Source: an uncultured Candidatus Binatia bacterium
GTDB taxonomy: Bacteria; Desulfobacterota; Binatia; UBA9968; CAXXLF01
Assembly: GCA_965218425.1 (NCBI GenBank)
Contig: OZ244621.1
Span: 1,568,001-1,632,000 of the forward strand
Direction: 5' to 3'
Length of the DNA stretch: 64,000 nucleotides
A program made the position numbers and the translations under genes. Positions 1,072 through 11,654 of the stretch are shown here, piece by piece (position 1 is the stretch's first letter; the number at the start of each line of letters is the position of its first letter). Under the pieces are notes generated by a model. That model was not told the DNA's origin and did not search any database. It saw only the letters and a list, made by a program, of their open reading frames with translations.

Positions 1072-4000
1072 TCACGTCTTCGATCGTGGAAAGAGGGGCA
1101 TCCACTGGGCACCTCCCTTGCCGGACCCGTGCAAGATGGGCAACGAGTTGTTTGGACAATTGCGTGAAAACGTGAGTAAAAGTCCTTGGTCCTTGAACCC
1201 TAAGGGGGTGCGCTTTTGCACTCGGACTCCGAGGTCTCTAAGCAGAGTCTTAGCAGCGCTCATCTCCTCTTTCGACTCCCAGAAGCCAATGGAGCTAGTG
1301 AACGCAAAATGCTTGCTCTCCAGTGTTTCGCAAATCTCCAGGTCGGCATTTGGCATGGATTTGTTCAAATGCGCTCTGACTCGATACTCGCCCTCCACGG
1401 TGCTACAAAGTACGATCACTGACAAAGGTACTTCCGTTCCAACCTTTACCTGTTGGAACAAGTCCGAAAGTTCCGTTAGCTTCTCCACAAGGTTGTGTCC
1501 CGTACCAATCATATCATCTACGATGACCAAGCCGATATGTTTCCCGTCGTACTTGTTACCGACGACGTCATCAAGTTGAAGAGGTGTGACCACGTTCTCT
1601 GAACGAATCTCATTCGTGCGCGCATAGAGTTCTGCATAGAGTGCGCCACTCTTTCCAGGTCCATCGACGTAGGAGACCAAGATATCGTCCCGATGTTGTG
1701 AACGACTCTTTTGCACAGGCACCGGCAGTTTGCCACGGATCCATCTATGCGCCTCCGAAAGTTTCTTTCTGGTCTCGAGGTCACTAACAAAACGAACATT
1801 TTGCAGCAACTTGAGCAACCACCTCCGTTCAATGTTTGACTCTACTTGTTCAATCCATGCTCTTATCTTGTCTTCTGTGATCTGGCGTCCCTGGTAAAGG
1901 TCCCATTTATTTGCAACATCGACGATTTCCGTTGCTCGGACGTACGCTATGTCTTCACGATGTTGTTTAGCCTCAGCTAGTTCGTCACCCAACTGGTCAC
2001 TAACAAGCATTGAAAACCCACTTTCCCTTAGCCAAACGGCGAACAAATCAACGGCAGGCAGATACGCGCCGTTCTTCTCTCTAAACACTCTACGTCGGCA
2101 TAAGTCTTCCAAGAGGGGCAAGACTTCAGTAGTATTGAATACGCCAGAAAGTACATTTGCGCCAATGGACTCGTGAGTCAACGGCTTCTTTGATCGTGCG
2201 GTGCGTGCCCAGGCCATAAACAAGCGACACCGCTTAATCGAAACAATCTCAATGTCATTAGAGTCACCGCGTATGCCGTCTCTCCAGTAGTGCGCGAATG
2301 CATTTGTGTCGAGAGTTGCAACGACTTGTTCCGCGGCCTTCTCGACTTCAGCACTTGATATTTCAGCGTCCTTGGTCTCAACTGCGCACTCATAGACTTT
2401 TGCACATAGCATCTTGGTAAAATACGGGTGCCCGTCCGTAAGTTCGAACAATTTGCGGAGGGCAGGTTCGTGCAATTTAATCACATTCTCCACAGGAGTC
2501 TGGATCAAGGCGCGATAATCTCCCCACTCAGTCTGTAGACTGAAGCTGTCAAGTGATTCGCGATTAAATTTATTTAGTTTCTCTCCTTGAGATGCCATCA
2601 CATAAGGCATCCGTTCAGCGCCTACCAGCACGAATGCGATGTTACTCTTGGACGAAAGCGTTCGCAGATTTAGGAAGAACGTGTTCGCTAACTCTCCGTA
2701 CCTGTACAGAGACTCGTTGATTTCGTCGAACTCATCTAAAATCACAACAAAACGCGATTCCGGCTTTTGAGTTCTTAGTTGGTCTAGAAGACTGTTTAGA
2801 GGTATTAGAGACGATGAAAAGTCCTCCGATAGCCAACCAGCGGACTGTGGCAAATTTTCCGCGAGAAATCTCTCCAATTGTGTTCCGAGCTCCTTCAACG
2901 TGTCCTCGCCCGACGAATGCCGGATTTCACCACACTCAAGATATAGAACGTTATAGTCACCTGGATGTATGTTATTTTTGATTTTAGTCTCGACGGCACG
3001 AGCAAGAGAGCTCTTTCCTACGCGCTTTTGACCGGTGATGTAACAGGACTGCATCGAGTCGGAAGCCAAGCGGCGTAGAATTCTTTGCACAGCGTCTTTA
3101 CGCCCGTAAAACTCCTGGTCATGAGCGACTTCGAGGCTATAAGGCTGTTGGCGCGAGAGGTCATCCCAATTGAGGTCGTTACGCTGGCCCTTAGCCGTCA
3201 CAGAGAATGTTCGGGTATGATTCGAGGGGTCACCGATCACGCCCCACTGGATTTCTACTTCTAGCTCCAGGCTTTCACGTGGCTCGGTCACGTTGACGAT
3301 CAGTGTCAGCACAAACGAGCCGGGTTCTACATCGCCTAAGCTCGTCTCCTCGCTTTGTATCTCGCAGTGGTCTGCAACACAGGTAGCCCGAACATTTTGT
3401 GCCACGCCTGGGCCTTCGTTGGTAAGTGGTATAAAAATCTGAATCTCAGAGTCGGTTACGTGAAGTGGATATTTCTTTTCGATTTCAAACGGACTGACAG
3501 GCACAGAAATTATGCAAGCAAACTTATCAGCCATGGTTTCTTGCTGCGCCCGTGCAGCAGTCTGGGCTTGTAGAAGGAAAGGAAGCATGTACTCTTGCAC
3601 AATGAAGGTCGGAGTATTCGCGTATTGATTTAGTTCGTCAGCGATGCTCTCTAGCAGACACTGCATGCTTGCCTGTAGCTTGTGTCCCTGAGACTGCGCA
3701 AGACCATCAACAAGTTTGAGTAGGCTACTAACAGATGACCGCACAGGGTCGAATCCAAAAGCGTTCAGATAGCTCTTCGTCGGTCCGTGATTAAGTTCCG
3801 TCAGAATTGTCTGACGGCGACCCCATAAATCCTGTACGCTAGTGAACGGTTGCTGTAGATAACTCAAATGTTTACAAGCTGTATGGTGTATCGTTTTAGC
3901 CCATTGGATCTTTTTGTGATTTGGAGCATTCTTGTCCGGGAAAACCTTCGAGATCAGGTCAGGGCAACCTTCTTCGATTAGCCGCACAATGTGGCGTCGA

Positions 4001-4281
4001 CCTTTATTGATGTCGTCCGTAGTCAGAACGTCCGTACAACTGACCAGTCGAATGGAGATTAAACCCATGTCTCTCTTCATGTTATCGTTGCAACCTTTCG
4101 CGATTGCTTCGAATGTGTCGGCCAGAGAAAGGGAAGAGTCTGGCGCGATCTGAGCTAGATTCTGGAGCGAATCGCTAATGATGCGACGTGCGTTGGAAAG
4201 GTTGGAAGGATCGGTATTCAATTCGTAGAGTACAGATTCGATTCGAAGAATATCGTCATGCAAGTCATTCATTTTGTACAC
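1072..4281 (-). CDS. STAND-like AAA+ ATPase with an Ig-like region and a C-terminal PRTase-fold (PRTase-CE-like) effector; candidate defence protein
   Basis: Motifs: PY...FYGR, Walker A GQKRVGKSS, Walker B VVILDEFD and GxP (ELTDGHPYF). The C-terminus has GKSG, IVDDMIGTG (PRPP-binding loop) and PLGF...NCPNNSLPIL...WMPLFPR. GC is lower than in the adjacent hsd genes. Confidence 0.75.
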   Translation of the reverse strand: MYKMNDLHDDILRIESVLYELNTDPSNLSNARRIISDSLQNLAQIAPDSSLSLADTFEAIAKGCNDNMKRDMGLISIRLVSCTDVLTTDDINKGRRHIVRLIEEGCPDLISKVFPDKNAPNHKKIQWAKTIHHTACKHLSYLQQPFTSVQDLWGRRQTILTELNHGPTKSYLNAFGFDPVRSSVSSLLKLVDGLAQSQGHKLQASMQCLLESIADELNQYANTPTFIVQEYMLPFLLQAQTAARAQQETMADKFACIISVPVSPFEIEKKYPLHVTDSEIQIFIPLTNEGPGVAQNVRATCVADHCEIQSEETSLGDVEPGSFVLTLIVNVTEPRESLELEVEIQWGVIGDPSNHTRTFSVTAKGQRNDLNWDDLSRQQPYSLEVAHDQEFYGRKDAVQRILRRLASDSMQSCYITGQKRVGKSSLARAVETKIKNNIHPGDYNVLYLECGEIRHSSGEDTLKELGTQLERFLAENLPQSAGWLSEDFSSSLIPLNSLLDQLRTQKPESRFVVILDEFDEINESLYRYGELANTFFLNLRTLSSKSNIAFVLVGAERMPYVMASQGEKLNKFNRESLDSFSLQTEWGDYRALIQTPVENVIKLHEPALRKLFELTDGHPYFTKMLCAKVYECAVETKDAEISSAEVEKAAEQVVATLDTNAFAHYWRDGIRGDSNDIEIVSIKRCRLFMAWARTARSKKPLTHESIGANVLSGVFNTTEVLPLLEDLCRRRVFREKNGAYLPAVDLFAVWLRESGFSMLVSDQLGDELAEAKQHREDIAYVRATEIVDVANKWDLYQGRQITEDKIRAWIEQVESNIERRWLLKLLQNVRFVSDLETRKKLSEAHRWIRGKLPVPVQKSRSQHRDDILVSYVDGPGKSGALYAELYARTNEIRSENVVTPLQLDDVVGNKYDGKHIGLVIVDDMIGTGHNLVEKLTELSDLFQQVKVGTEVPLSVIVLCSTVEGEYRVRAHLNKSMPNADLEICETLESKHFAFTSSIGFWESKEEMSAAKTLLRDLGVRVQKRTPLGFKDQGLLLTFSRNCPNNSLPILHGSGKGGAQWMPLFPRSKT

Positions 4282-4421: not shown

Positions 4422-6065
4422 TCAAGAGCCAGTATTACCAGACATTATGGGTCCAGCCCCGAGCGCAGCAGCGAGAGGTTCAATGCGTTTTCTGAGTTTC
4501 TTGGCCAGAGCCTCGTCACCCTGAACTCGGGAGATCAACGTTTGCTCATACGTCTTTCTACCTTTAAGTTCGAGGGCTTCAGTAATAGCTTTAAAAACGC
4601 TGCTCTCGCGGAGCGGATAGCGAGCAACGAGTTCGTCCAGTTTCTTCTCAGCAACAAGTTTCTTGAAGCGCACCAACTCATCTTGATAGGGAGAATCGGC
4701 AGACAGGTCGAATTTTGGCTTGGTTTTGATACATTTCCAATCGGGGACTTGCCGTAGTATCATATCACGTACTCGACCTTCGCAACGCCGCGCCGCCATC
4801 TTTTCGGCAAGGCTGTCCTGATTCAGGGCATCAAGTGCTTTCCGTGTCGCAGACTTTATCATATCGTTTGCGTCGCAACCCAGTGACTCTGCTTGTCGGT
4901 GGGCGACCGCGGCAATGGCATCTGAGCAATAGTAGAGTGCTTCGACCGAGTACACGTCCAAGGCAAACACGCCCTCCTTTGCAAGCTCCTGTATTTTGTC
5001 TTCCGCTTGATTGTCCCCATCGATAAGCCCAAACGCCTCGACGTGATGGAGATATCGGGATCCTCGCAGGCCGCTCACCGCTCTATGGACATCGATGCAA
5101 CTTCCCTTCGGCACCACCGAGATATCCGGAAATAGCGTGTGATAAAGTGGAAGGTCCAAACTTTGGGGCTCGCCTTCAACAAAGAGAATTCTTTTCCGGG
5201 AACCCAAGATAGCCCGTTTAAGATCCTCCGGCAGGTGTGCGTTCGCTTCAAGGAGTTTGACATCCCAAGCTTTTGCTGCGTCGCCGCTCCATTCGCATGA
5301 GCGAACCATCAGGACGCGTGCTTCCGGGTTGGCGACCGGCAGGTCGACCTCATGCGTTGAGACGACAAATGCGCAATCCGTGCGACGATCAAACAGTGCC
5401 GACAGAAATGGCTCGATGATGGACCGATGAAGATGCCGTTCCGGCTCATCAATCAACAACACGGTTCCCGGATCGACGGTTAGCATGGTGGCCGCTATTA
5501 TTGCGGCGTTCCGCTCCCCATCCGACATCTGAGCGATACTGTACGGCGCACTGCCGTCTCGATGCTGCGCGAGTATCTCTTCGTCATTGGAATTTTTGAG
5601 AGTGACCGCCAGCGTTCCGAGCGCGAGCAATTCGTTGAGTTGATCAAACGGAGAGGGCGATTTATCAAATTCCGCCTGTGCCTGTGATGGGTTTCGAGCA
5701 GCATGATGCTTGATGATGGACCGAGCCCGGGTGTTCTCCTTGGCAACCAAGTCAAATAGAACGGCCGATTGTCTTTCTTGTGCGTTATCATCTCGCCAAC
5801 GAGATTGGTTTTGTATTTCGCGCGGCGTGTTACTCTGATCAAACCATTTGCGCTGCTGCGGCGTGAGGTTGATGCTCCCGGACTGAAACCATGTCTGTCG
5901 ATGCGCCGAAATGCGCCTGATTTTCTTACCTGGATTCGATGAAACAAGGTGTTGAATCAATGCCGATTTTCCAGAGCCATTGGCGCCAACAATGAAGAGC
6001 CGGTCGTTGTCATCGAGAGATATTTGGAGCGGTTGGCCTGAAATTTGAGGAATATTCCAATTCAT
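4422..6065 (-). CDS. ABC-type ATPase fused to a TOPRIM/DUF4435-like nuclease (PARIS AriA-AriB fusion-like or OLD-like)
   Basis: Walker A GANGSGKS, signature MSDGER, Walker B LLIDEPERHLH and STH. The TOPRIM part has ILFVEG...D, GLIDGD and YSVEAL. Confidence 0.75.
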   Translation of the reverse strand: MNWNIPQISGQPLQISLDDNDRLFIVGANGSGKSALIQHLVSSNPGKKIRRISAHRQTWFQSGSINLTPQQRKWFDQSNTPREIQNQSRWRDDNAQERQSAVLFDLVAKENTRARSIIKHHAARNPSQAQAEFDKSPSPFDQLNELLALGTLAVTLKNSNDEEILAQHRDGSAPYSIAQMSDGERNAAIIAATMLTVDPGTVLLIDEPERHLHRSIIEPFLSALFDRRTDCAFVVSTHEVDLPVANPEARVLMVRSCEWSGDAAKAWDVKLLEANAHLPEDLKRAILGSRKRILFVEGEPQSLDLPLYHTLFPDISVVPKGSCIDVHRAVSGLRGSRYLHHVEAFGLIDGDNQAEDKIQELAKEGVFALDVYSVEALYYCSDAIAAVAHRQAESLGCDANDMIKSATRKALDALNQDSLAEKMAARRCEGRVRDMILRQVPDWKCIKTKPKFDLSADSPYQDELVRFKKLVAEKKLDELVARYPLRESSVFKAITEALELKGRKTYEQTLISRVQGDEALAKKLRKRIEPLAAALGAGPIMSGNTGS

Positions 6066-6084: not shown

Positions 6085-8604
6085 TTAACCGCCCCACACT
6101 CGCCCGATGGCCGCGCTGATCTTCTTCTCGAAACGTTCGATCAACTCGCGGTTGGCGGCGACGAGGGCTTGCTCGGCTTCGATTTCGGCGACGATTGCTT
6201 GCTGCGTGTCAGGAGGCGGCAGAGGTATTTCTGTATGGAATAGTTGGGATCTGTTGATCTTTGGAATGCTCGCACGCTCGTAGTGGTGGCAAATACGCTG
6301 GTTAAATGATTCTGACAACATGTATACGGACAAATAGTGAATTTTAATCTTCGAACTGTTCGTTATCAGCGGATAGATGTCGGAACTGCAATAGCCATGA
6401 ATGTCAACAATTCCGAGTTTGTTCAGGTAAGGTCGGATTTTACTGTACAAAAGGCGCTCGCCGGAGAACTCGTAGACTGGTCCGCTGACTCCTTGATTCT
6501 GAGCTGTCTCCACTTTTAAAAATTTACCGGTATGTGATTCAATGCTGTCAGAGCCGAAGTAAGGTAGTGTAGGATTCACTGTCTTCGTAATTGATCCACC
6601 CATTGTGCAGATCTTTCCCAACTCCACCATCGGCCACTCGGGGTCAATTGCGATATGCGGCCGGTAGTTGTCTACCACCGCCCGCGCCCCGTCTATCACA
6701 CGCTGGTAGCCCTCTATCTCCGCCACGATCTCCCGCTGCACCTCCGGCGGGGGCAGGGGGATTTCCAGATTTGCGAACGACTGCCAGCCTATACGAGGAA
6801 GCTGTGCACCTTTGAGTTGGCTCAAGACTTCATCATTAAAGTGACCACTTCGAAAGACATAGGCGTACAAGGCTGGTAAGACGCGTCCATCCAAGGATCG
6901 GACAACGAATATATCAGTCGAGCAGATGCCCTTCCGATCCGAGAGCCACACCTTGTTGAGGTTCGGCCGTAACTTTCCATAGAGAATATCGCCGGGACAG
7001 AAGACATTCTTAAGACTCTTGATCCCTGCTGGATTATCGGTCGCGACATTCCCCGATAGTTGCCCGCTGGTCTGAGTGATGTTTTCCAGCCCTATGCAAT
7101 TCACGGGACCACGGAGCGACATCGGCAAGACAGTTTCCTCCGCCTTCTTGAATACATCTCTCACTCTCACGGAAGGCCACTCGGATAGGATGGAGTGTTC
7201 AGTCCGATACCTTTCCCCGCTCAGGTTGTAGTCCCCGCCCGCCGCTATCTTCTCCTTCTCGGCGATCAGACCGAATGCGGGTCGATAGTCGTCCGTTGTG
7301 TACCGCGCCCCAGGTTCCGCTACACGATCCGTCGGCGTCGGCTGAATTGCGTCCACGGATTCGCCCGCCCGCAACCGGCGCAGATATTCGCCAAGCTCGG
7401 CCCGCACGTGAGGCAGGTCGTTCCTGTCGATGGGCCGGCGCTGGGCGCCGAGGTCGTAGCCGTCGTTTGCCACCTTGAAGAAACCTATGCGGCCGGTCTT
7501 CTTCGCCAGCGACTTGTCGAGGATCAGGATCGAGGTCTTGACGCCGGAGTAGGGATTGAACACCCCGGCGGGCAGCGAGACGACGGCGACGAGGCACTCC
7601 TCCACCAGCATCCTGCGCAGTCCCTTGTGGGCGGTCTGGCTCTGGAAGACGATGCCTTCGGGCACGATGATGCCGGCGCGGCCGGAAGGCGTCAGGTGCT
7701 CGGCCATGTAGTCCACGAACAGCACCTCGCTCCGCTTGGACTGGACGGAGAAGCGGTTGTGCGGCCTGATGCCGCCCTTGGGCGACATGAACGGAGGGTT
7801 GGCGAGGATCACGTCGGCGTACTCGTTCCAGCGGTCCTGGCTGGTGAGGGTGTCGTATTCGGATATGTGCGGATCGGCGAAGCCGTGCAGGTACAGGTTC
7901 ACCAGCGACAGGCGCACCATGTCGGGCGAGATGTCGTAGCCGTTGAAGTCGGCGGCAAGCTTCCCTTTTTCGTCGGGTGTCAGCGTGCTGTGCCTCTCGT
8001 CGTCGGTGTTGGCTTCGAGGATGTGCTTGTAGGACGAGATCAGGAATCCGGCGGTGCCGCAGGCGGGGTCGAGTACGGCCTCGTCCTTCTTCGGGTCGAC
8101 GACGGCGACGATGAAGTCGATGATATGGCGCGGGGTGCGGAACTGTCCGGCGTCGCCCTGCGAGCCGAGGACGGACAGCAGGTACTCGAAGGCGTCGCCG
8201 AGCCGTTCGGAGTGGTCGTAGGCGAACTCGTCGATGACCTTGAGAAAGGCGCGCAGGGTCTCGGGGTCGCGGTAGGGCAGGAAGGCGTTCTTGAAGATCT
8301 CGCGGAACAGCGGCGGGATGCCGGGGTTCTCCGGCATCCTGGCGATAGCCTCGGCGTAGAGGTCGAGAACCTCGTGTCCCCCCAGCCCCGAGCGCATCAG
8401 CTTGGCCCAGCCGTAGCGGGCGAACCCGCCGGCGAAAAATCTCCGCGCGCCCCCGAGTTCCTCGCTCCCGGCGTCCATGTCGTCCATGAACTTGTAGATC
8501 AGCGCGATGGTGATCTGCTCGACCTGGCTCTTGGGGTCGGGCACCTTGCCCACGAGAACGTCGCGGGCGGTGTCGATGCGGCGCTTGGTGTCGGTGTCCA
8601 GCAT
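6085..8604 (-). CDS. hsdM-hsdS: Type I R-M N6-adenine methyltransferase fused to the specificity subunit (HsdM-HsdS)
   Basis: GQFRTP, DPACGTAGFL and NPPF motifs, then two TRDs, each ending in an EIPLPPP..Q..IVAEIE conserved helix. Confidence 0.9.
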   Translation of the reverse strand: MLDTDTKRRIDTARDVLVGKVPDPKSQVEQITIALIYKFMDDMDAGSEELGGARRFFAGGFARYGWAKLMRSGLGGHEVLDLYAEAIARMPENPGIPPLFREIFKNAFLPYRDPETLRAFLKVIDEFAYDHSERLGDAFEYLLSVLGSQGDAGQFRTPRHIIDFIVAVVDPKKDEAVLDPACGTAGFLISSYKHILEANTDDERHSTLTPDEKGKLAADFNGYDISPDMVRLSLVNLYLHGFADPHISEYDTLTSQDRWNEYADVILANPPFMSPKGGIRPHNRFSVQSKRSEVLFVDYMAEHLTPSGRAGIIVPEGIVFQSQTAHKGLRRMLVEECLVAVVSLPAGVFNPYSGVKTSILILDKSLAKKTGRIGFFKVANDGYDLGAQRRPIDRNDLPHVRAELGEYLRRLRAGESVDAIQPTPTDRVAEPGARYTTDDYRPAFGLIAEKEKIAAGGDYNLSGERYRTEHSILSEWPSVRVRDVFKKAEETVLPMSLRGPVNCIGLENITQTSGQLSGNVATDNPAGIKSLKNVFCPGDILYGKLRPNLNKVWLSDRKGICSTDIFVVRSLDGRVLPALYAYVFRSGHFNDEVLSQLKGAQLPRIGWQSFANLEIPLPPPEVQREIVAEIEGYQRVIDGARAVVDNYRPHIAIDPEWPMVELGKICTMGGSITKTVNPTLPYFGSDSIESHTGKFLKVETAQNQGVSGPVYEFSGERLLYSKIRPYLNKLGIVDIHGYCSSDIYPLITNSSKIKIHYLSVYMLSESFNQRICHHYERASIPKINRSQLFHTEIPLPPPDTQQAIVAEIEAEQALVAANRELIERFEKKISAAIGRVWGG

Positions 8605-8613
8605 GGAGAGACT

Positions 8614-11148
8614 CTATGGGGCGAACTGGTTCAGGGAGACGTAATCCTTGACGTATTCCGGAATGAGACTGCGGTATTTCTCCGGCACGGCGCGGAAGTC
8701 GCGGGTGGAGAAAACCGGGTTGGTTGCCAGGTCGGTGAAGCGCTTGCCGTCGATGATCTCGCGGATCCGGTTGCTGGCGGCATAAGCCTTGAAGTAGCTC
8801 TTGATGGCCGGGATGGACCTGAACTCTTCGGGCTTGTAGTCGGCGACGAACTTGGCGAACTCCTCTTCCAGCAGCTCGTCCTTGGACTTGAAGCGGGGGA
8901 TAAGGCCGAAGACCTTCTCCAGGATCTCGCGCAAGGTCAGGCGGCGGTCCACGGCCGCGGCCCGGCGCAGCTTGGCGAGGGTGTAGTACTCCTCGGGCTT
9001 GTCGAAGACCTCGCGGTTGACGTAGTCGATGACCCGGTCCCACTGGCCGGCTTCGATGGCCGTCGCGATGATTTCGTCCTTACGCACGGCGTCTTCGAAC
9101 TTCTCGAAGAACATGCGGTCGATCTTCATCCCTTCGAATCCGATTTCTTCCTCCTTGATGAGCGACAGGATGTCGGGTCCCAAGTGCTCGTATGCGCCGC
9201 CGACGACCACGGGGCCATCGCCCCCGTCGCCGTTGCCGTCCCCGGGCGGCGGCAGCGTCAGCACCTCGTCGTAGTTGAACTCGGTCTCGAAGTACTCGCA
9301 GTTGCCGAAGAAATCGAAGAGCTTGAAGGCCGTCTTGTCCGGCCTGGCGACGGCGGCCTTGAGGCTGTCGTCGAAAAGCTGTTCGAGGAAGTCGTGCCTG
9401 CGGGTGCCGCGTCCCTTGATCTGGATGAAGTCGGTGGGTGAGAAGATGGGCCGGAACATGCCGAGATTGAGGATATCGGTGCAGTCGTAGCCGGTGGTCA
9501 TCATGCCGACCGTCACGCAGATACGGGCCTTGCCGGTCCTGTAGCCGGGCAGGAAGTTGCCCGAGCCGAGCAGGTTGTTGTTGGCGAAGTTGATGGTGAG
9601 CCGTTGGGCGTCCGGTATCTCGGAGGTGACCTGCACGGCGAAGTCCGACTGGTACTTGCCGGGGAACATGCGGTCGGCCATCCGGTTGAGGATCTGCGCC
9701 AGCTTGGCCGCGTGGTTCTGGCTGACGGCGAAGACGATGGATTTGCCGATCTCGCCGCTGACGGGGTCGCGCAGCGCATTCTCGAGAAAGGTCTTGCAGA
9801 AGAGCCGGTTGGTGGCTTCGGAAAAGAAGCGCTTCTCGAACTCGCGCTGCCCGTACGCCTCCTGCTCATCCTCGCCGCCGTTATCGGTGAACGGGACGAT
9901 AAAGCCTTCTTGGGAGAGGAGTCGGGTGGTTACTTCCGTACGCGCGTCCACCACGGTCGGGTTGACCAGAAAACCGTCTTTCACGCCGTCGAGCAGTGAG
10001 TAGCGAAAGGTCGGCTCACCGCTCTCGCAGCCGAAGGTGCGGTAGGTGTCCATCAGCAGCCGGCGCTCGGCTTCGCGCGGGTCCGTCGCCGCGGGGACGG
10101 CATGGTCGAAGCCCTTCAGGTAGTCGCGGGGCGTCGCGGTGAGGCCGAGCTTGTAGCCGACGAAGTAATCGAACACCGCCCGGGCGTTGCCGCCGATGGA
10201 GCGGTGCGCTTCATCCGAGATGACGAGGTCGAAGTCGGTGGGCGAGAAGAGCTTTTGGTACTTGTTGTTGAACAGCAGGGACTGCACGGTGGCGACGACG
10301 ATCTCCGCGCGACGCCAGTCGTCCCGCTTCTCCTTGTAGATGACCGTCTGGAAGTCGGCGGAAAGCAGCGCGGTGAAGACCTTGCGGGCCTGGTCCTCCA
10401 GCTCCAGGCGGTCCACCAGGAAAAGCGCGCGGCGGGCGTTGCGGGAGCGCAGGAACAGCTTGACGACGGCGGCGGCCGTGAGCGTCTTGCCCGTGCCGGT
10501 GGCCATCTCGAACAGGAACCGGTCCCCGCCGTCCTTTACGCTGCGTTGAAGGGCATGGACGGCTTTAAGCTGATAAGGGCGCAGAAAGCGCAGCTTGTCG
10601 GCCTGGATAAAGCCGGGGCGCTCGGCTTCGTTCTTCCAGGCCGCCTCGGAGGCGTAGTTCGGACGCTGGGTCAGGACGATATAGTCACCGGCGACCGGCT
10701 CATCGATCAAGCGCTTCGGGTCGGGCGTGACCTTTCGGTAGCCGTCCGCCGAGTCGGGCGCAGGGAACGAGGTGATGACGTAGGGGTTGCCGCGTTCGAG
10801 ATCCCAAAAGTAGTGCAGGTTGCCGTTCGAGAGGATCACGAAGCGGCAGTTCTGCGACCGGGCGTACTTGCGGGCCTGCTCTTTACCCGCCAGCGGACTC
10901 TTGTCCTCGGCCTTGGCCTCAAGAACGATGAGCGGGAATCCCTTGCCGTCGAGCAGCAGGAAGTCGATGAAACCCTTGGAGGTCTTCTCGAAATCGTGAC
11001 CCAGCGCGTCGAGGTCGGATTGCTCGATCGTGACGCTTAGTTCGAGGCAGACGTTGGCGGGGCCGTCTCCCTCCGGGAAGAAACGCCAGCCGGCTGCTTC
11101 CAGCAGCTTGTTGATCTTGATACGCGCTGCGGCTTCGCTCATGGGCAC
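8614..11148 (-). CDS. hsdR: Type I restriction endonuclease subunit R (EcoAI/EcoEI-like)
   Basis: Nuclease motif FIDFLL...LEAK. Helicase motifs LRPYQ, MATGTGKT, DEAH, LTAT, TTGYD and QIKGRGTR. 9 bp from hsdMS. Confidence 0.9.
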   Translation of the reverse strand: MPMSEAAARIKINKLLEAAGWRFFPEGDGPANVCLELSVTIEQSDLDALGHDFEKTSKGFIDFLLLDGKGFPLIVLEAKAEDKSPLAGKEQARKYARSQNCRFVILSNGNLHYFWDLERGNPYVITSFPAPDSADGYRKVTPDPKRLIDEPVAGDYIVLTQRPNYASEAAWKNEAERPGFIQADKLRFLRPYQLKAVHALQRSVKDGGDRFLFEMATGTGKTLTAAAVVKLFLRSRNARRALFLVDRLELEDQARKVFTALLSADFQTVIYKEKRDDWRRAEIVVATVQSLLFNNKYQKLFSPTDFDLVISDEAHRSIGGNARAVFDYFVGYKLGLTATPRDYLKGFDHAVPAATDPREAERRLLMDTYRTFGCESGEPTFRYSLLDGVKDGFLVNPTVVDARTEVTTRLLSQEGFIVPFTDNGGEDEQEAYGQREFEKRFFSEATNRLFCKTFLENALRDPVSGEIGKSIVFAVSQNHAAKLAQILNRMADRMFPGKYQSDFAVQVTSEIPDAQRLTINFANNNLLGSGNFLPGYRTGKARICVTVGMMTTGYDCTDILNLGMFRPIFSPTDFIQIKGRGTRRHDFLEQLFDDSLKAAVARPDKTAFKLFDFFGNCEYFETEFNYDEVLTLPPPGDGNGDGGDGPVVVGGAYEHLGPDILSLIKEEEIGFEGMKIDRMFFEKFEDAVRKDEIIATAIEAGQWDRVIDYVNREVFDKPEEYYTLAKLRRAAAVDRRLTLREILEKVFGLIPRFKSKDELLEEEFAKFVADYKPEEFRSIPAIKSYFKAYAASNRIREIIDGKRFTDLATNPVFSTRDFRAVPEKYRSLIPEYVKDYVSLNQFAP

Positions 11149-11243: not shown

Positions 11244-11561
11244 CTATCGAACGGTGTGGATCTTCAGGTGAAGCCCCTCGCGTTTCTGGAGGTAGCCGAT
11301 GATCTTAAACAGGTTGCGGGCCTGAGGATTGCCGTTGGGGCCGAACATGCGCATCAGGCTCTTGGGCGACTTCGCGATCAACCCGCCAAGCTCCTGGAAG
11401 CCGATGGTGGCGTTGATGTAGTCGTGCAGTACCGCCTTGCCGGTGTCCAGGTCGCCGGAGAGCAGGCACTCGACTCCTTCTTTGAGCAACTCCTCGCGGA
11501 AGGCAGGGTCGCGCTCAATACGCGCCAGAATCGTTTCCTTGAAGTTTCGTGTCAAAGACAT
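11244..11561 (-). CDS. Addiction-module antitoxin / HTH transcriptional regulator
   Basis: MSLTRNFKETILARIERDPAFREELLKEGVECLLSGDLDTGKAVLHDYINATIGF...KSLMRMFGPNGNPQARNLF is a widespread antidote family. The likely start is 11561, not 11654. Confidence 0.8.
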   Translation of the reverse strand: MSLTRNFKETILARIERDPAFREELLKEGVECLLSGDLDTGKAVLHDYINATIGFQELGGLIAKSPKSLMRMFGPNGNPQARNLFKIIGYLQKREGLHLKIHTVR

Positions 11562-11566
11562 GGTTC

Positions 11567-11654
11567 TCAAGTCTCCCGCCGCTTGCGCCGCCTGTATTCC
11601 CGCCAGAGGTCGTGGGCGGCCTTGGGTGTCAAAGTACTCCCTGATTTCAATCAT
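11567..11654 (-). pseudogene. Internally deleted RelE/HigB-type toxin
   Basis: The N-terminus MIEIREYFDTQGR is joined, in another frame, to the C-terminus KAAHDLWREYRRRKRRET*. Most of the toxin is missing. Confidence 0.75.

Follow-up and report, generated by a model that had tools for sequence, protein, structure and literature searches.

A gene on the minus strand, at positions 1072-4281 of a 64,000-nucleotide stretch from an uncultured Candidatus Binatia bacterium (contig OZ244621.1, positions 1,568,001 to 1,632,000; hereafter the window, meaning the whole stretch analysed), encodes a protein of 1069 residues in which a phosphoribosyltransferase (PRTase) is fused behind an NTPase of the STAND type (signal transduction ATPase with numerous domains). 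The gene is probably a defence gene with the PRTase as its effector, and we lean, rather cautiously, towards a stand-alone abortive-defence protein of reversed polarity, in which, besides, the N-terminal head would be the sensor. The architecture and the intact motifs recur in a mobile single-gene family that has exchanged its effector at the C-terminus. As judged from the collected sequences, this family is conserved, patchily distributed and low in GC content; it is apparently undescribed and combines familiar domains in an order that is unusual. From the N- to the C-terminus, a helical region, an Ig-like sandwich, the NTPase, a helical/winged-helix part and the PRTase follow one another:

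1072..4281, minus strand: whole gene, with helical region, Ig-like sandwich, STAND-type NTPase, winged helix and PRTase.
3523..4281 (residues 1-253), minus strand: N-terminal all-helical region, a putative sensor or regulatory module (AlphaFold2 models; least conserved part).
3178..3522 (residues 254-368), minus strand: Ig-like beta-sandwich, DUF11/CARDB-like (fold search, Pfam), retained in all three clades.
2473..3177 (residues 369-603), minus strand: P-loop NTPase with an hhGR motif, Walker A at 3010-3033 and Walker B at 2722-2748 (Pfam ATPase_2, nSTAND1, AAA_22).
1987..2472, minus strand: helical domain (GxP at 2425-2433), followed by a winged helix whose FAHYW (2284-2298) contains an invariant His (alignment, fold search).
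1075..1929 (residues ~785-1069), minus strand: PRTase-CE domain, the putative effector (Pfam, PADLOC).
1645-1656, 1498-1521 and 1138-1200, minus strand: PRTase motifs, namely the KSG loop, the phosphoribosyl pyrophosphate (PRPP)-binding loop VDDMIGTG and Gx14PNN.

The open reading frame (ORF) is intact and starts with GTG, and the public record of the protein begins at Met4 (1066 residues). Contigs from four public runs span the gene without a listed indel or joint, a coverage that is not fully independent because some runs may be the source sample. Motif positions below follow the 1069-residue ORF, and conserved positions such as G390 or H661 follow the numbering of P0002. An earlier note, made from the DNA letters, had described the same succession of domains, and every motif it quoted was located in the ORF: IPLTNEGPGVAQNV at residues 284-297 and LGDVEPG at 315-321; Walker A GQKRVGKS at 417-424, Walker B VVILDEFDE at 512-520 and GHP at 617-619; and GKSG at 876-879, VDDMIGTG at 921-928, PNNSLP within 1028-1048 and WMPLFPR at 1060-1066. 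The domains themselves were likewise recovered. An AlphaFold2 model built on a 68-sequence alignment (mean predicted local distance difference test score, pLDDT, 87.4; predicted template modelling score, pTM, 0.59) predicts residues 1-250 to be all-helical, and residues ~253-365 to form a beta-sandwich; behind these come the NTPase, then a part with helices and a winged helix, and finally an alpha/beta domain at the C-terminus. The N-terminal 367 residues modelled alone (pLDDT 95.6) gave the same helical region. The Ig/CARDB-like assignment of the note fits the sandwich, whose fold is generic (Z ~10 at best against many Ig-like domains, r.m.s.d. 2.7-2.9 over ~100 residues); DUF11 matches the isolated segment below threshold (E 0.003).

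The N-terminal helical region has no Pfam match, and fold searches returned generic helical-bundle matches only, with residues 144-252 forming a four-helix bundle. Foldseek comparison of the N-terminal model with the PDB and with viral models found only generic Ig or helical matches, and an Atlas search with residues 1-370 gave no usable match. Neither Pfam, Atlas nor a specific fold match points to an enzymatic effector within residues 1-250, where no conserved catalytic set is present either; a non-enzymatic effector there is conceivable. The N-terminal region of the window protein also lacks a hydrophobic segment, the highest Kyte-Doolittle mean over 19 residues being 0.88; a mean above 1.8 occurs in five of 203 family members. 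At the other end, Pfam and AlphaFold2 assign the whole region after the winged helix to the PRTase, with no TPR, WD40, LRR or FGS repeat sensor. Among longer proteins matched by the N-terminal 367 residues, 41 of 41 bear an NTPase annotation.

We collected the family by a word search (399 proteins at E ≤0.001, best 120 listed) and a profile search (802 clusters at E ≤1e-30, best 150 listed, where many lower matches may share one domain only), and aligned 203 full-length proteins of 1000-1250 residues out of 264. In this alignment, conservation is 85-100% for the two Walker motifs, GxP, the His of the winged helix and the motifs of the PRTase, and a single position of the helical head reaches at least 85%. 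The hhGR motif preceding Walker A is nearly invariant (G390 99%, R391 100%), as are G414, G419 and D513/E514 (99-100%); Walker A occurs in 200 of the 203 proteins, and G614 and P616 of GxP as well as H661 of the winged helix in all. The aspartate pair of the PRPP loop is found in 202 and Gx14P[ND][ND] in 195. Towards 115 distant members, the median identity to the window protein is 0.15 for the head, 0.25 for the Ig-like domain, 0.36 for the NTPase, 0.28 for the winged helix and 0.33 for the PRTase; for the head it is 0.37 towards near homologs.

Pfam AAA_22, ATPase_2 and nSTAND1 each match residues ~385-620 above their cut-offs, and together with the Walker and GHP motifs they support the STAND-like NTPase of the earlier note; the helical/winged-helix linker that it had placed next is found in the model, with GxP and His invariant. 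In fold comparisons, the modelled NTPase and winged-helix part resembles 2qen, 2qby and 2fna most closely (Z 19.8-19.9, r.m.s.d. 4.9-6.0 over 321-331 residues), the alignment running through residues 750-765 of the model. These best matches are the archaeal proteins PAB2304 (2qen) and SSO1545 (2fna), which we take to be MNS-clade STANDs, and Cdc6/Orc1 (2qby); all are of ~350 residues, lack a helical/Ig head or a PRTase tail and share 13-17% identity with the window protein. Plant NLRs (nucleotide-binding leucine-rich repeat receptors) score Z 12-15, Avs5 13.6, and TnsC, MuB and BrxC 13-15. The term NLR-like therefore holds only loosely: the STAND motifs are present, whereas the nearest structures are archaeal Walker-type ATPases and Cdc6/Orc1, not Avs/NACHT. 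The TIGR02928 orc1/cdc6 profile falls far below its cut-off, whereas nSTAND1 and ATPase_2 pass theirs.

The C-terminal PRTase proposed by the earlier note is well supported. Pfam PRTase-CE (PF24390) covers residues 806-1066 (E 1.6e-43, 149.9 bits against a cut-off of 27), the retron PRTase_III-A model of PADLOC matches with a best E of 2e-31, and the catalytic motifs are intact; compared with the published Gx14PNNxP pattern, the window protein has Gx14PNN with the final Pro one residue later. The fold assignment rests on these profiles and on predicted secondary structure, because fold searches with the whole model were filled by NTPase matches. A complex prediction for two PRTase domains (770-1066) scored 0.00 twice with controls that were not folded, and counts neither way. 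The sections covered of the Retron-Eco11 study report that defence needs the PRPP motif of the PRTase and that activation cuts PRPP by ~50% (PMC12746101). The window PRTase belongs to the clade of the type III-A retron (Retron-Eco11) PRTase and shares its PRPP loop and Gx14PNN, but it is fused behind an NTPase with no reverse transcriptase found alongside; the polypeptide itself has to provide the control of the enzyme. We rejected membership in type III-A retrons, as the window neighbours are restriction-modification (RM), AriAB-like and KTSC genes with no reverse transcriptase among them, and no retron reverse transcriptase match or motif pair was found among the neighbour ORFs of 49 family loci (the non-coding RNA was not searched for). 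DS-32, Ophion OpnC and ShosT are likewise phage-defence PRTases; as far as their descriptions were covered, Ophion is a three-gene system, ShosTA a toxin-antitoxin pair and the DS32_1 model 322 residues long, and none is fused to an NTPase (10.1101/2025.09.30.679545; PMC13092281; PMC11961720). The DS32_1 model matches the last 60 residues of the window protein weakly (E 8.7e-7, far below cut-off).

The strongest evidence for the reversed polarity is a swap at the C-terminus in clade B, a low-GC sister clade of proteins of 1170-1327 residues from metagenome loci. A quick tree, rooted at the midpoint and built from 63 sampled rows (two rows without a Walker A pattern match were dropped), shows clade B as one branch, with a support of 99, among groups with intact PRTases. 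All 13 complete members examined retain Walker A and have lost the PRPP-loop motif; as aligned, they are without the KSG and PNN motifs as well, and PRTase-CE still matches seven of the 13. Each carries ~150-190 added residues at the C-terminus. Twelve of these tails contain an HEPN-type Rx4H motif (12/12 of the non-AlbA tails), and the thirteenth, from locus L050, is a Schlafen AlbA_2 domain (E 9e-13). HEPN profiles match four of 11 tails, all below cut-off; the one tail submitted to the Atlas found Swt1-HEPN clusters at the top (score 0.93), and a search of the tails against solved-structure sequences gave two chance-level matches only. The part covered of 10.1101/2022.07.19.500537 lists HEPN and Schlafen domains among the RNase effectors found on NACHT proteins of bacteria. 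As the intact motifs match those of retron PRTases, the dead PRTase of clade B is most simply the derived state, and since the loss of one enzyme and the gain of a putative nuclease occur at the same end, the C-terminus appears to be an effector slot, where the earlier note had placed the effector. The N-terminal module of clade B is homologous to that of the window protein (profile match 99.3% over 65-368), and the helical and Ig-like module is common to all three clades. As separate observations on clade B loci, four of 12 loci have a PDC-M16A-like helicase gene, maybe an optional partner, immediately beside the clade B gene, twice upstream and twice downstream (L039:5467-6921, L052:11077-12495, L066:5488-6945 and L070:10930-12330), and at L050 (AlbA_2 tail) and L084 (HEPN tail) the clade B gene lies directly behind a short prokaryotic Argonaute (pAgo) and TIR-APAZ pair.

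The third clade, clade C, comprises L111 and most of a set of 92 proteins of ~1250-1450 residues with ~200 extra N-terminal residues; the PRPP-loop aspartate pair is found in 91 of the 92 (one protein of this set, P0367, falls with clade B). OST-HTH/LOTUS-like domains match five of 13 clade C sequences, all below threshold, and among 14 N-termini from clade B, S4-like domains match eight, of which one passes its cut-off (E 4.6e-7), the two short members being among those without a match. Both S4 and LOTUS domains bind RNA. In addition, P0250 of the main clade has UPF0158 at its N-terminus (E 9e-6, above cut-off), which makes a third type of addition at the head. With LOTUS, S4 and UPF0158 at the head and the clade B additions at the tail, binding-type add-ons thus seem to collect N-terminally and enzymes C-terminally.

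We compared the neighbourhoods of 49 of 87 loci (duplicates and short contigs left out; mean flank 8.1 kb) using PADLOC at E 1e-30 on composition-filtered ORFs of at least 110 residues within 5 kb (241 of 242, one 1068-residue ORF being left out), with 18 out of 20 evenly spaced 10-kb stretches from the window's own genome as the only control. By hand count, 24 of the 49 loci have a PADLOC match within 5 kb; subtracting four generic ones (two UvrD helicases, an ABC transporter and a phage-type methylase) leaves clear defence genes at 20 loci, compared with two of the 18 controls (one-sided Fisher p 0.019). Clade B alone gives 9/12 (p 0.0006). The systems alongside are unrelated to one another: type I and II RM, Wadjet, CBASS, short pAgo, a DISARM-like system, BREX PglZ and Avs4. 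GC content is below that of the flanks in 46 of the 49 loci. The largest common neighbour family occurs at four loci, and no conserved partner was found among the neighbour families of the 49, in agreement with the single-gene system foreseen by the earlier note. We also considered an operon acting as one system with AriAB or RM, and rejected it because these partners are not conserved at other loci. The gene is rare, being present in three of 41 related genomes and in one of 301 in the phylum as a whole, a count that includes the window's own genome, and the 11 closest named genome loci, at 50-66% identity, are metagenome-assembled genomes of several classes. Two loci lie on viral contigs; no match was found in annotated plasmids or phages, or, in a DNA search with L082, in E. 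coli genomes.

Some side observations belong to these loci. Interruptions affect five of the 11 closest genome copies: L001 and L006 carry inserts holding transposase-like ORFs by eye, and L003, L008 and L010 have frame breaks, which could be assembly errors. Radical-SAM clusters, by eye His-Xaa-Ser-like, lie near the gene at L004:122-2737 and L059:4569-7700; the L059 cluster has no PADLOC match, and the L004 cluster is more than 5 kb away. Two large ORFs (908 and 1391 residues) directly downstream of the gene at L034:11079-18046 (minus strand) have no PADLOC match at E 1e-30. Two control stretches are themselves of interest: L093 (G000:C1:1200001-1210000) has Dnd/Ssp-like genes, and L098 (2300001-2310000) a type I RM system with IetAS, the latter apparently split.

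Based on STAND biology, a nucleotide-bound NTPase and the winged helix would hold the PRTase off in the resting state. Upon infection, the variable helical and Ig-like head would bind a trigger, which the add-ons of the other clades hint could be RNA or a ribonucleoprotein, and nucleotide exchange and oligomerisation would presumably follow. By analogy with the retron Eco11 PRTase, the freed PRTase may then consume PRPP or move its ribose-phosphate to an unusual acceptor, so that nucleotide and NAD synthesis would be starved and the cell arrested. A bolder version, which we consider doubtful, sees the family as reversed-polarity receptors watching RNA or the ribosome and not phage structural proteins: the head, aided in two clades by S4 and LOTUS domains acquired separately, would detect RNA of the phage or translation complexes that are damaged, and would switch on either the PRTase or the RNase tail carried on the dead PRTase.

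Several observations weigh against the reversed-polarity defence protein. The pTM of 0.59 leaves the packing of the domains unsettled, Cdc6/Orc1 (2qby) ties with the archaeal STAND-type ATPases in fold score, and a head of such high variability could also be a scaffold under little constraint. No RNA-binding add-on was detected in the window protein, and the S4 and LOTUS matches are for the most part below cut-off. The defence association expected by the earlier note stands for the family as a mobile, defence-leaning context, but not for the main clade of the window protein by itself, where 11 of 37 loci have defence neighbours (p 0.12, not significant). The overall enrichment leans on clade B, with a small control from one genome and loci that are not independent. 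Moreover, only four of the 11 closest genome loci have a PADLOC match within 5 kb, one of them a generic UvrD.

The main rival explanation, on the whole unlikely, has a different sensor. The NTPase, taken as Cdc6/Orc1- or TnsC-like, would together with the winged helix read DNA, namely phage replication intermediates or ends, and oligomerise on it, while the head would be a scaffold or an autoinhibitory cap and the defence output would be the same. Besides Cdc6/Orc1 (2qby Z 19.9) and the Z of 13-15 for TnsC, MuB and BrxC, the pairing of retron III-A PRTases with winged-helix domains (PMC7736814, part covered) and the description of CDC6/ORC1-clade NTPases with C-terminal restriction endonuclease effectors (PMC10853773, part covered) agree with a DNA-reading NTPase. 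The invariant hhGR, GxP and winged-helix His are of the STAND type, however, the helical and Ig-like module is kept in all three clades, and binding-type add-ons arise at the N-terminus.

A weaker rival, which appears improbable, is the normal polarity, with the PRTase fold as a PRPP or nucleotide ligand sensor and the N-terminal helical bundle as the killer, for instance by damaging membranes. PurR and PyrR use the PRTase fold as a ligand sensor, and residues 144-252 form a four-helix bundle. STANDs usually have the effector at the N-terminus and the sensor at the C-terminus (PMC13581612, part covered). Clade B nevertheless loses the PRPP loop and gains an RNase-type domain behind it with the head retained; the N-terminal region has neither a conserved catalytic set nor a hydrophobic segment, and the PRTase bears the effector-clade motif. 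Equally improbable is a gene that is not antiphage, i.e., a toxin, whether selfish or triggered by stress, or a nucleotide-metabolism regulator collecting in variable islands, for although 26 of the 37 main-clade loci have no neighbour that PADLOC clearly assigns to defence at E 1e-30 and five of 11 genome loci are interrupted, as fits any costly gene, the gene is rare and scattered and not core, is inserted beside many unrelated defence systems and has no antitoxin-like partner.

Returning to the reversed-polarity defence protein, we found no already characterised system that matches its full length. No PADLOC model spans the whole protein; its nine PADLOC matches, the best five being retron PRTase_III-A confined to the C-terminus, and its three NCBIfam matches, all far below cut-off, include no Avs or NACHT profile, and a search of solved-structure sequences with the family profile found none at E 0.01. 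Avs/bNACHT proteins (Avs1-24) are alike in having a central P-loop NTPase, a helical domain, a winged helix and an enzyme on one protein, in their defence-island context and in the exchange of effectors between clades. The window protein differs in lacking a TPR, WD40 or FGS sensor and in carrying its enzyme directly behind the winged helix, and its NTPase scores lower against Avs5 (Z 13.6) than against archaeal ATPases (19.9). The inverted architecture claimed by the earlier note is supported as regards the C-terminal effector slot, but a C-terminal effector as such has precedent on related NTPases: in the parts of the papers covered, some bNACHTs have one after a repeat sensor (10.1101/2022.07.19.500537), and STAND-GT4 fusions are a further example (PMC8195603). 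What is unusual is the combination of a C-terminal effector on such an NTPase with no repeat sensor whatsoever.

A literature search found no description of an NTPase-PRTase fusion, including the parts covered of PMC12839542 and PMC13712802; a possible source paper of PRTase-CE, which might list this architecture, was outside this coverage. As far as it was covered, the STAND survey PMC13581612 takes the C-terminal region as the sensor and clusters only those of at least 400 residues, so that the family could have been missed or misread. The covered parts do not contain the PRTase term, large supplements, maybe with clade tables, lying outside them, and the window NTPase may sit unnamed among the 589 STAND clades. 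If confirmed, the family would represent a second way of wiring an NLR-like switch and a retron PRTase in single-protein, switchable form. The three clades are natural material for chimeras on the sensing end and the killing end.

In the window, the gene is the last large member of a same-strand run that begins with HsdR and continues with an HsdM-S fusion and a PARIS-like AriAB:

8614..11148, minus strand: type I restriction enzyme HsdR (Pfam, PADLOC, NCBIfam).
6085..8604, minus strand: type I RM HsdM-HsdS fusion, one 839-residue ORF (Pfam, PADLOC).
4422..6065, minus strand: PARIS AriAB-like fused ABC ATPase-DUF4435 gene, single copy in the genome (PADLOC AriAB E 2e-63; Pfam AAA_21 and DUF4435).

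The GC content of the gene is 0.49, compared with 0.56 for the window. A promoter and terminator scan remained at chance level, neither the window nor 19.5 kb of adjoining sequence contains a tRNA gene, and no RNA holder is listed. A 136-residue ORF at 11244-11654 (minus strand), without a Pfam match, looks by eye like a truncated toxin start joined to an addiction-module antitoxin. On the other side, a KTSC-domain gene lies at 459-740 (Pfam E 1.9e-23) and a short ORF at 50-403 carries an HGGxS motif, presumably of the kind found in phage small proteins; region 50-740 may be a prophage remnant. Between the KTSC gene and the PRTase fusion gene, a repeat of ~280 bp at 741-1030 has 76 blastn matches in its own genome, with 75-95% identity among the matches listed, and its contig depth in public runs is very high. 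The beginning of an IS110-like transposase frame can be made out in it by eye, and it is possibly a miniature inverted-repeat transposable element or an insertion-sequence remnant.

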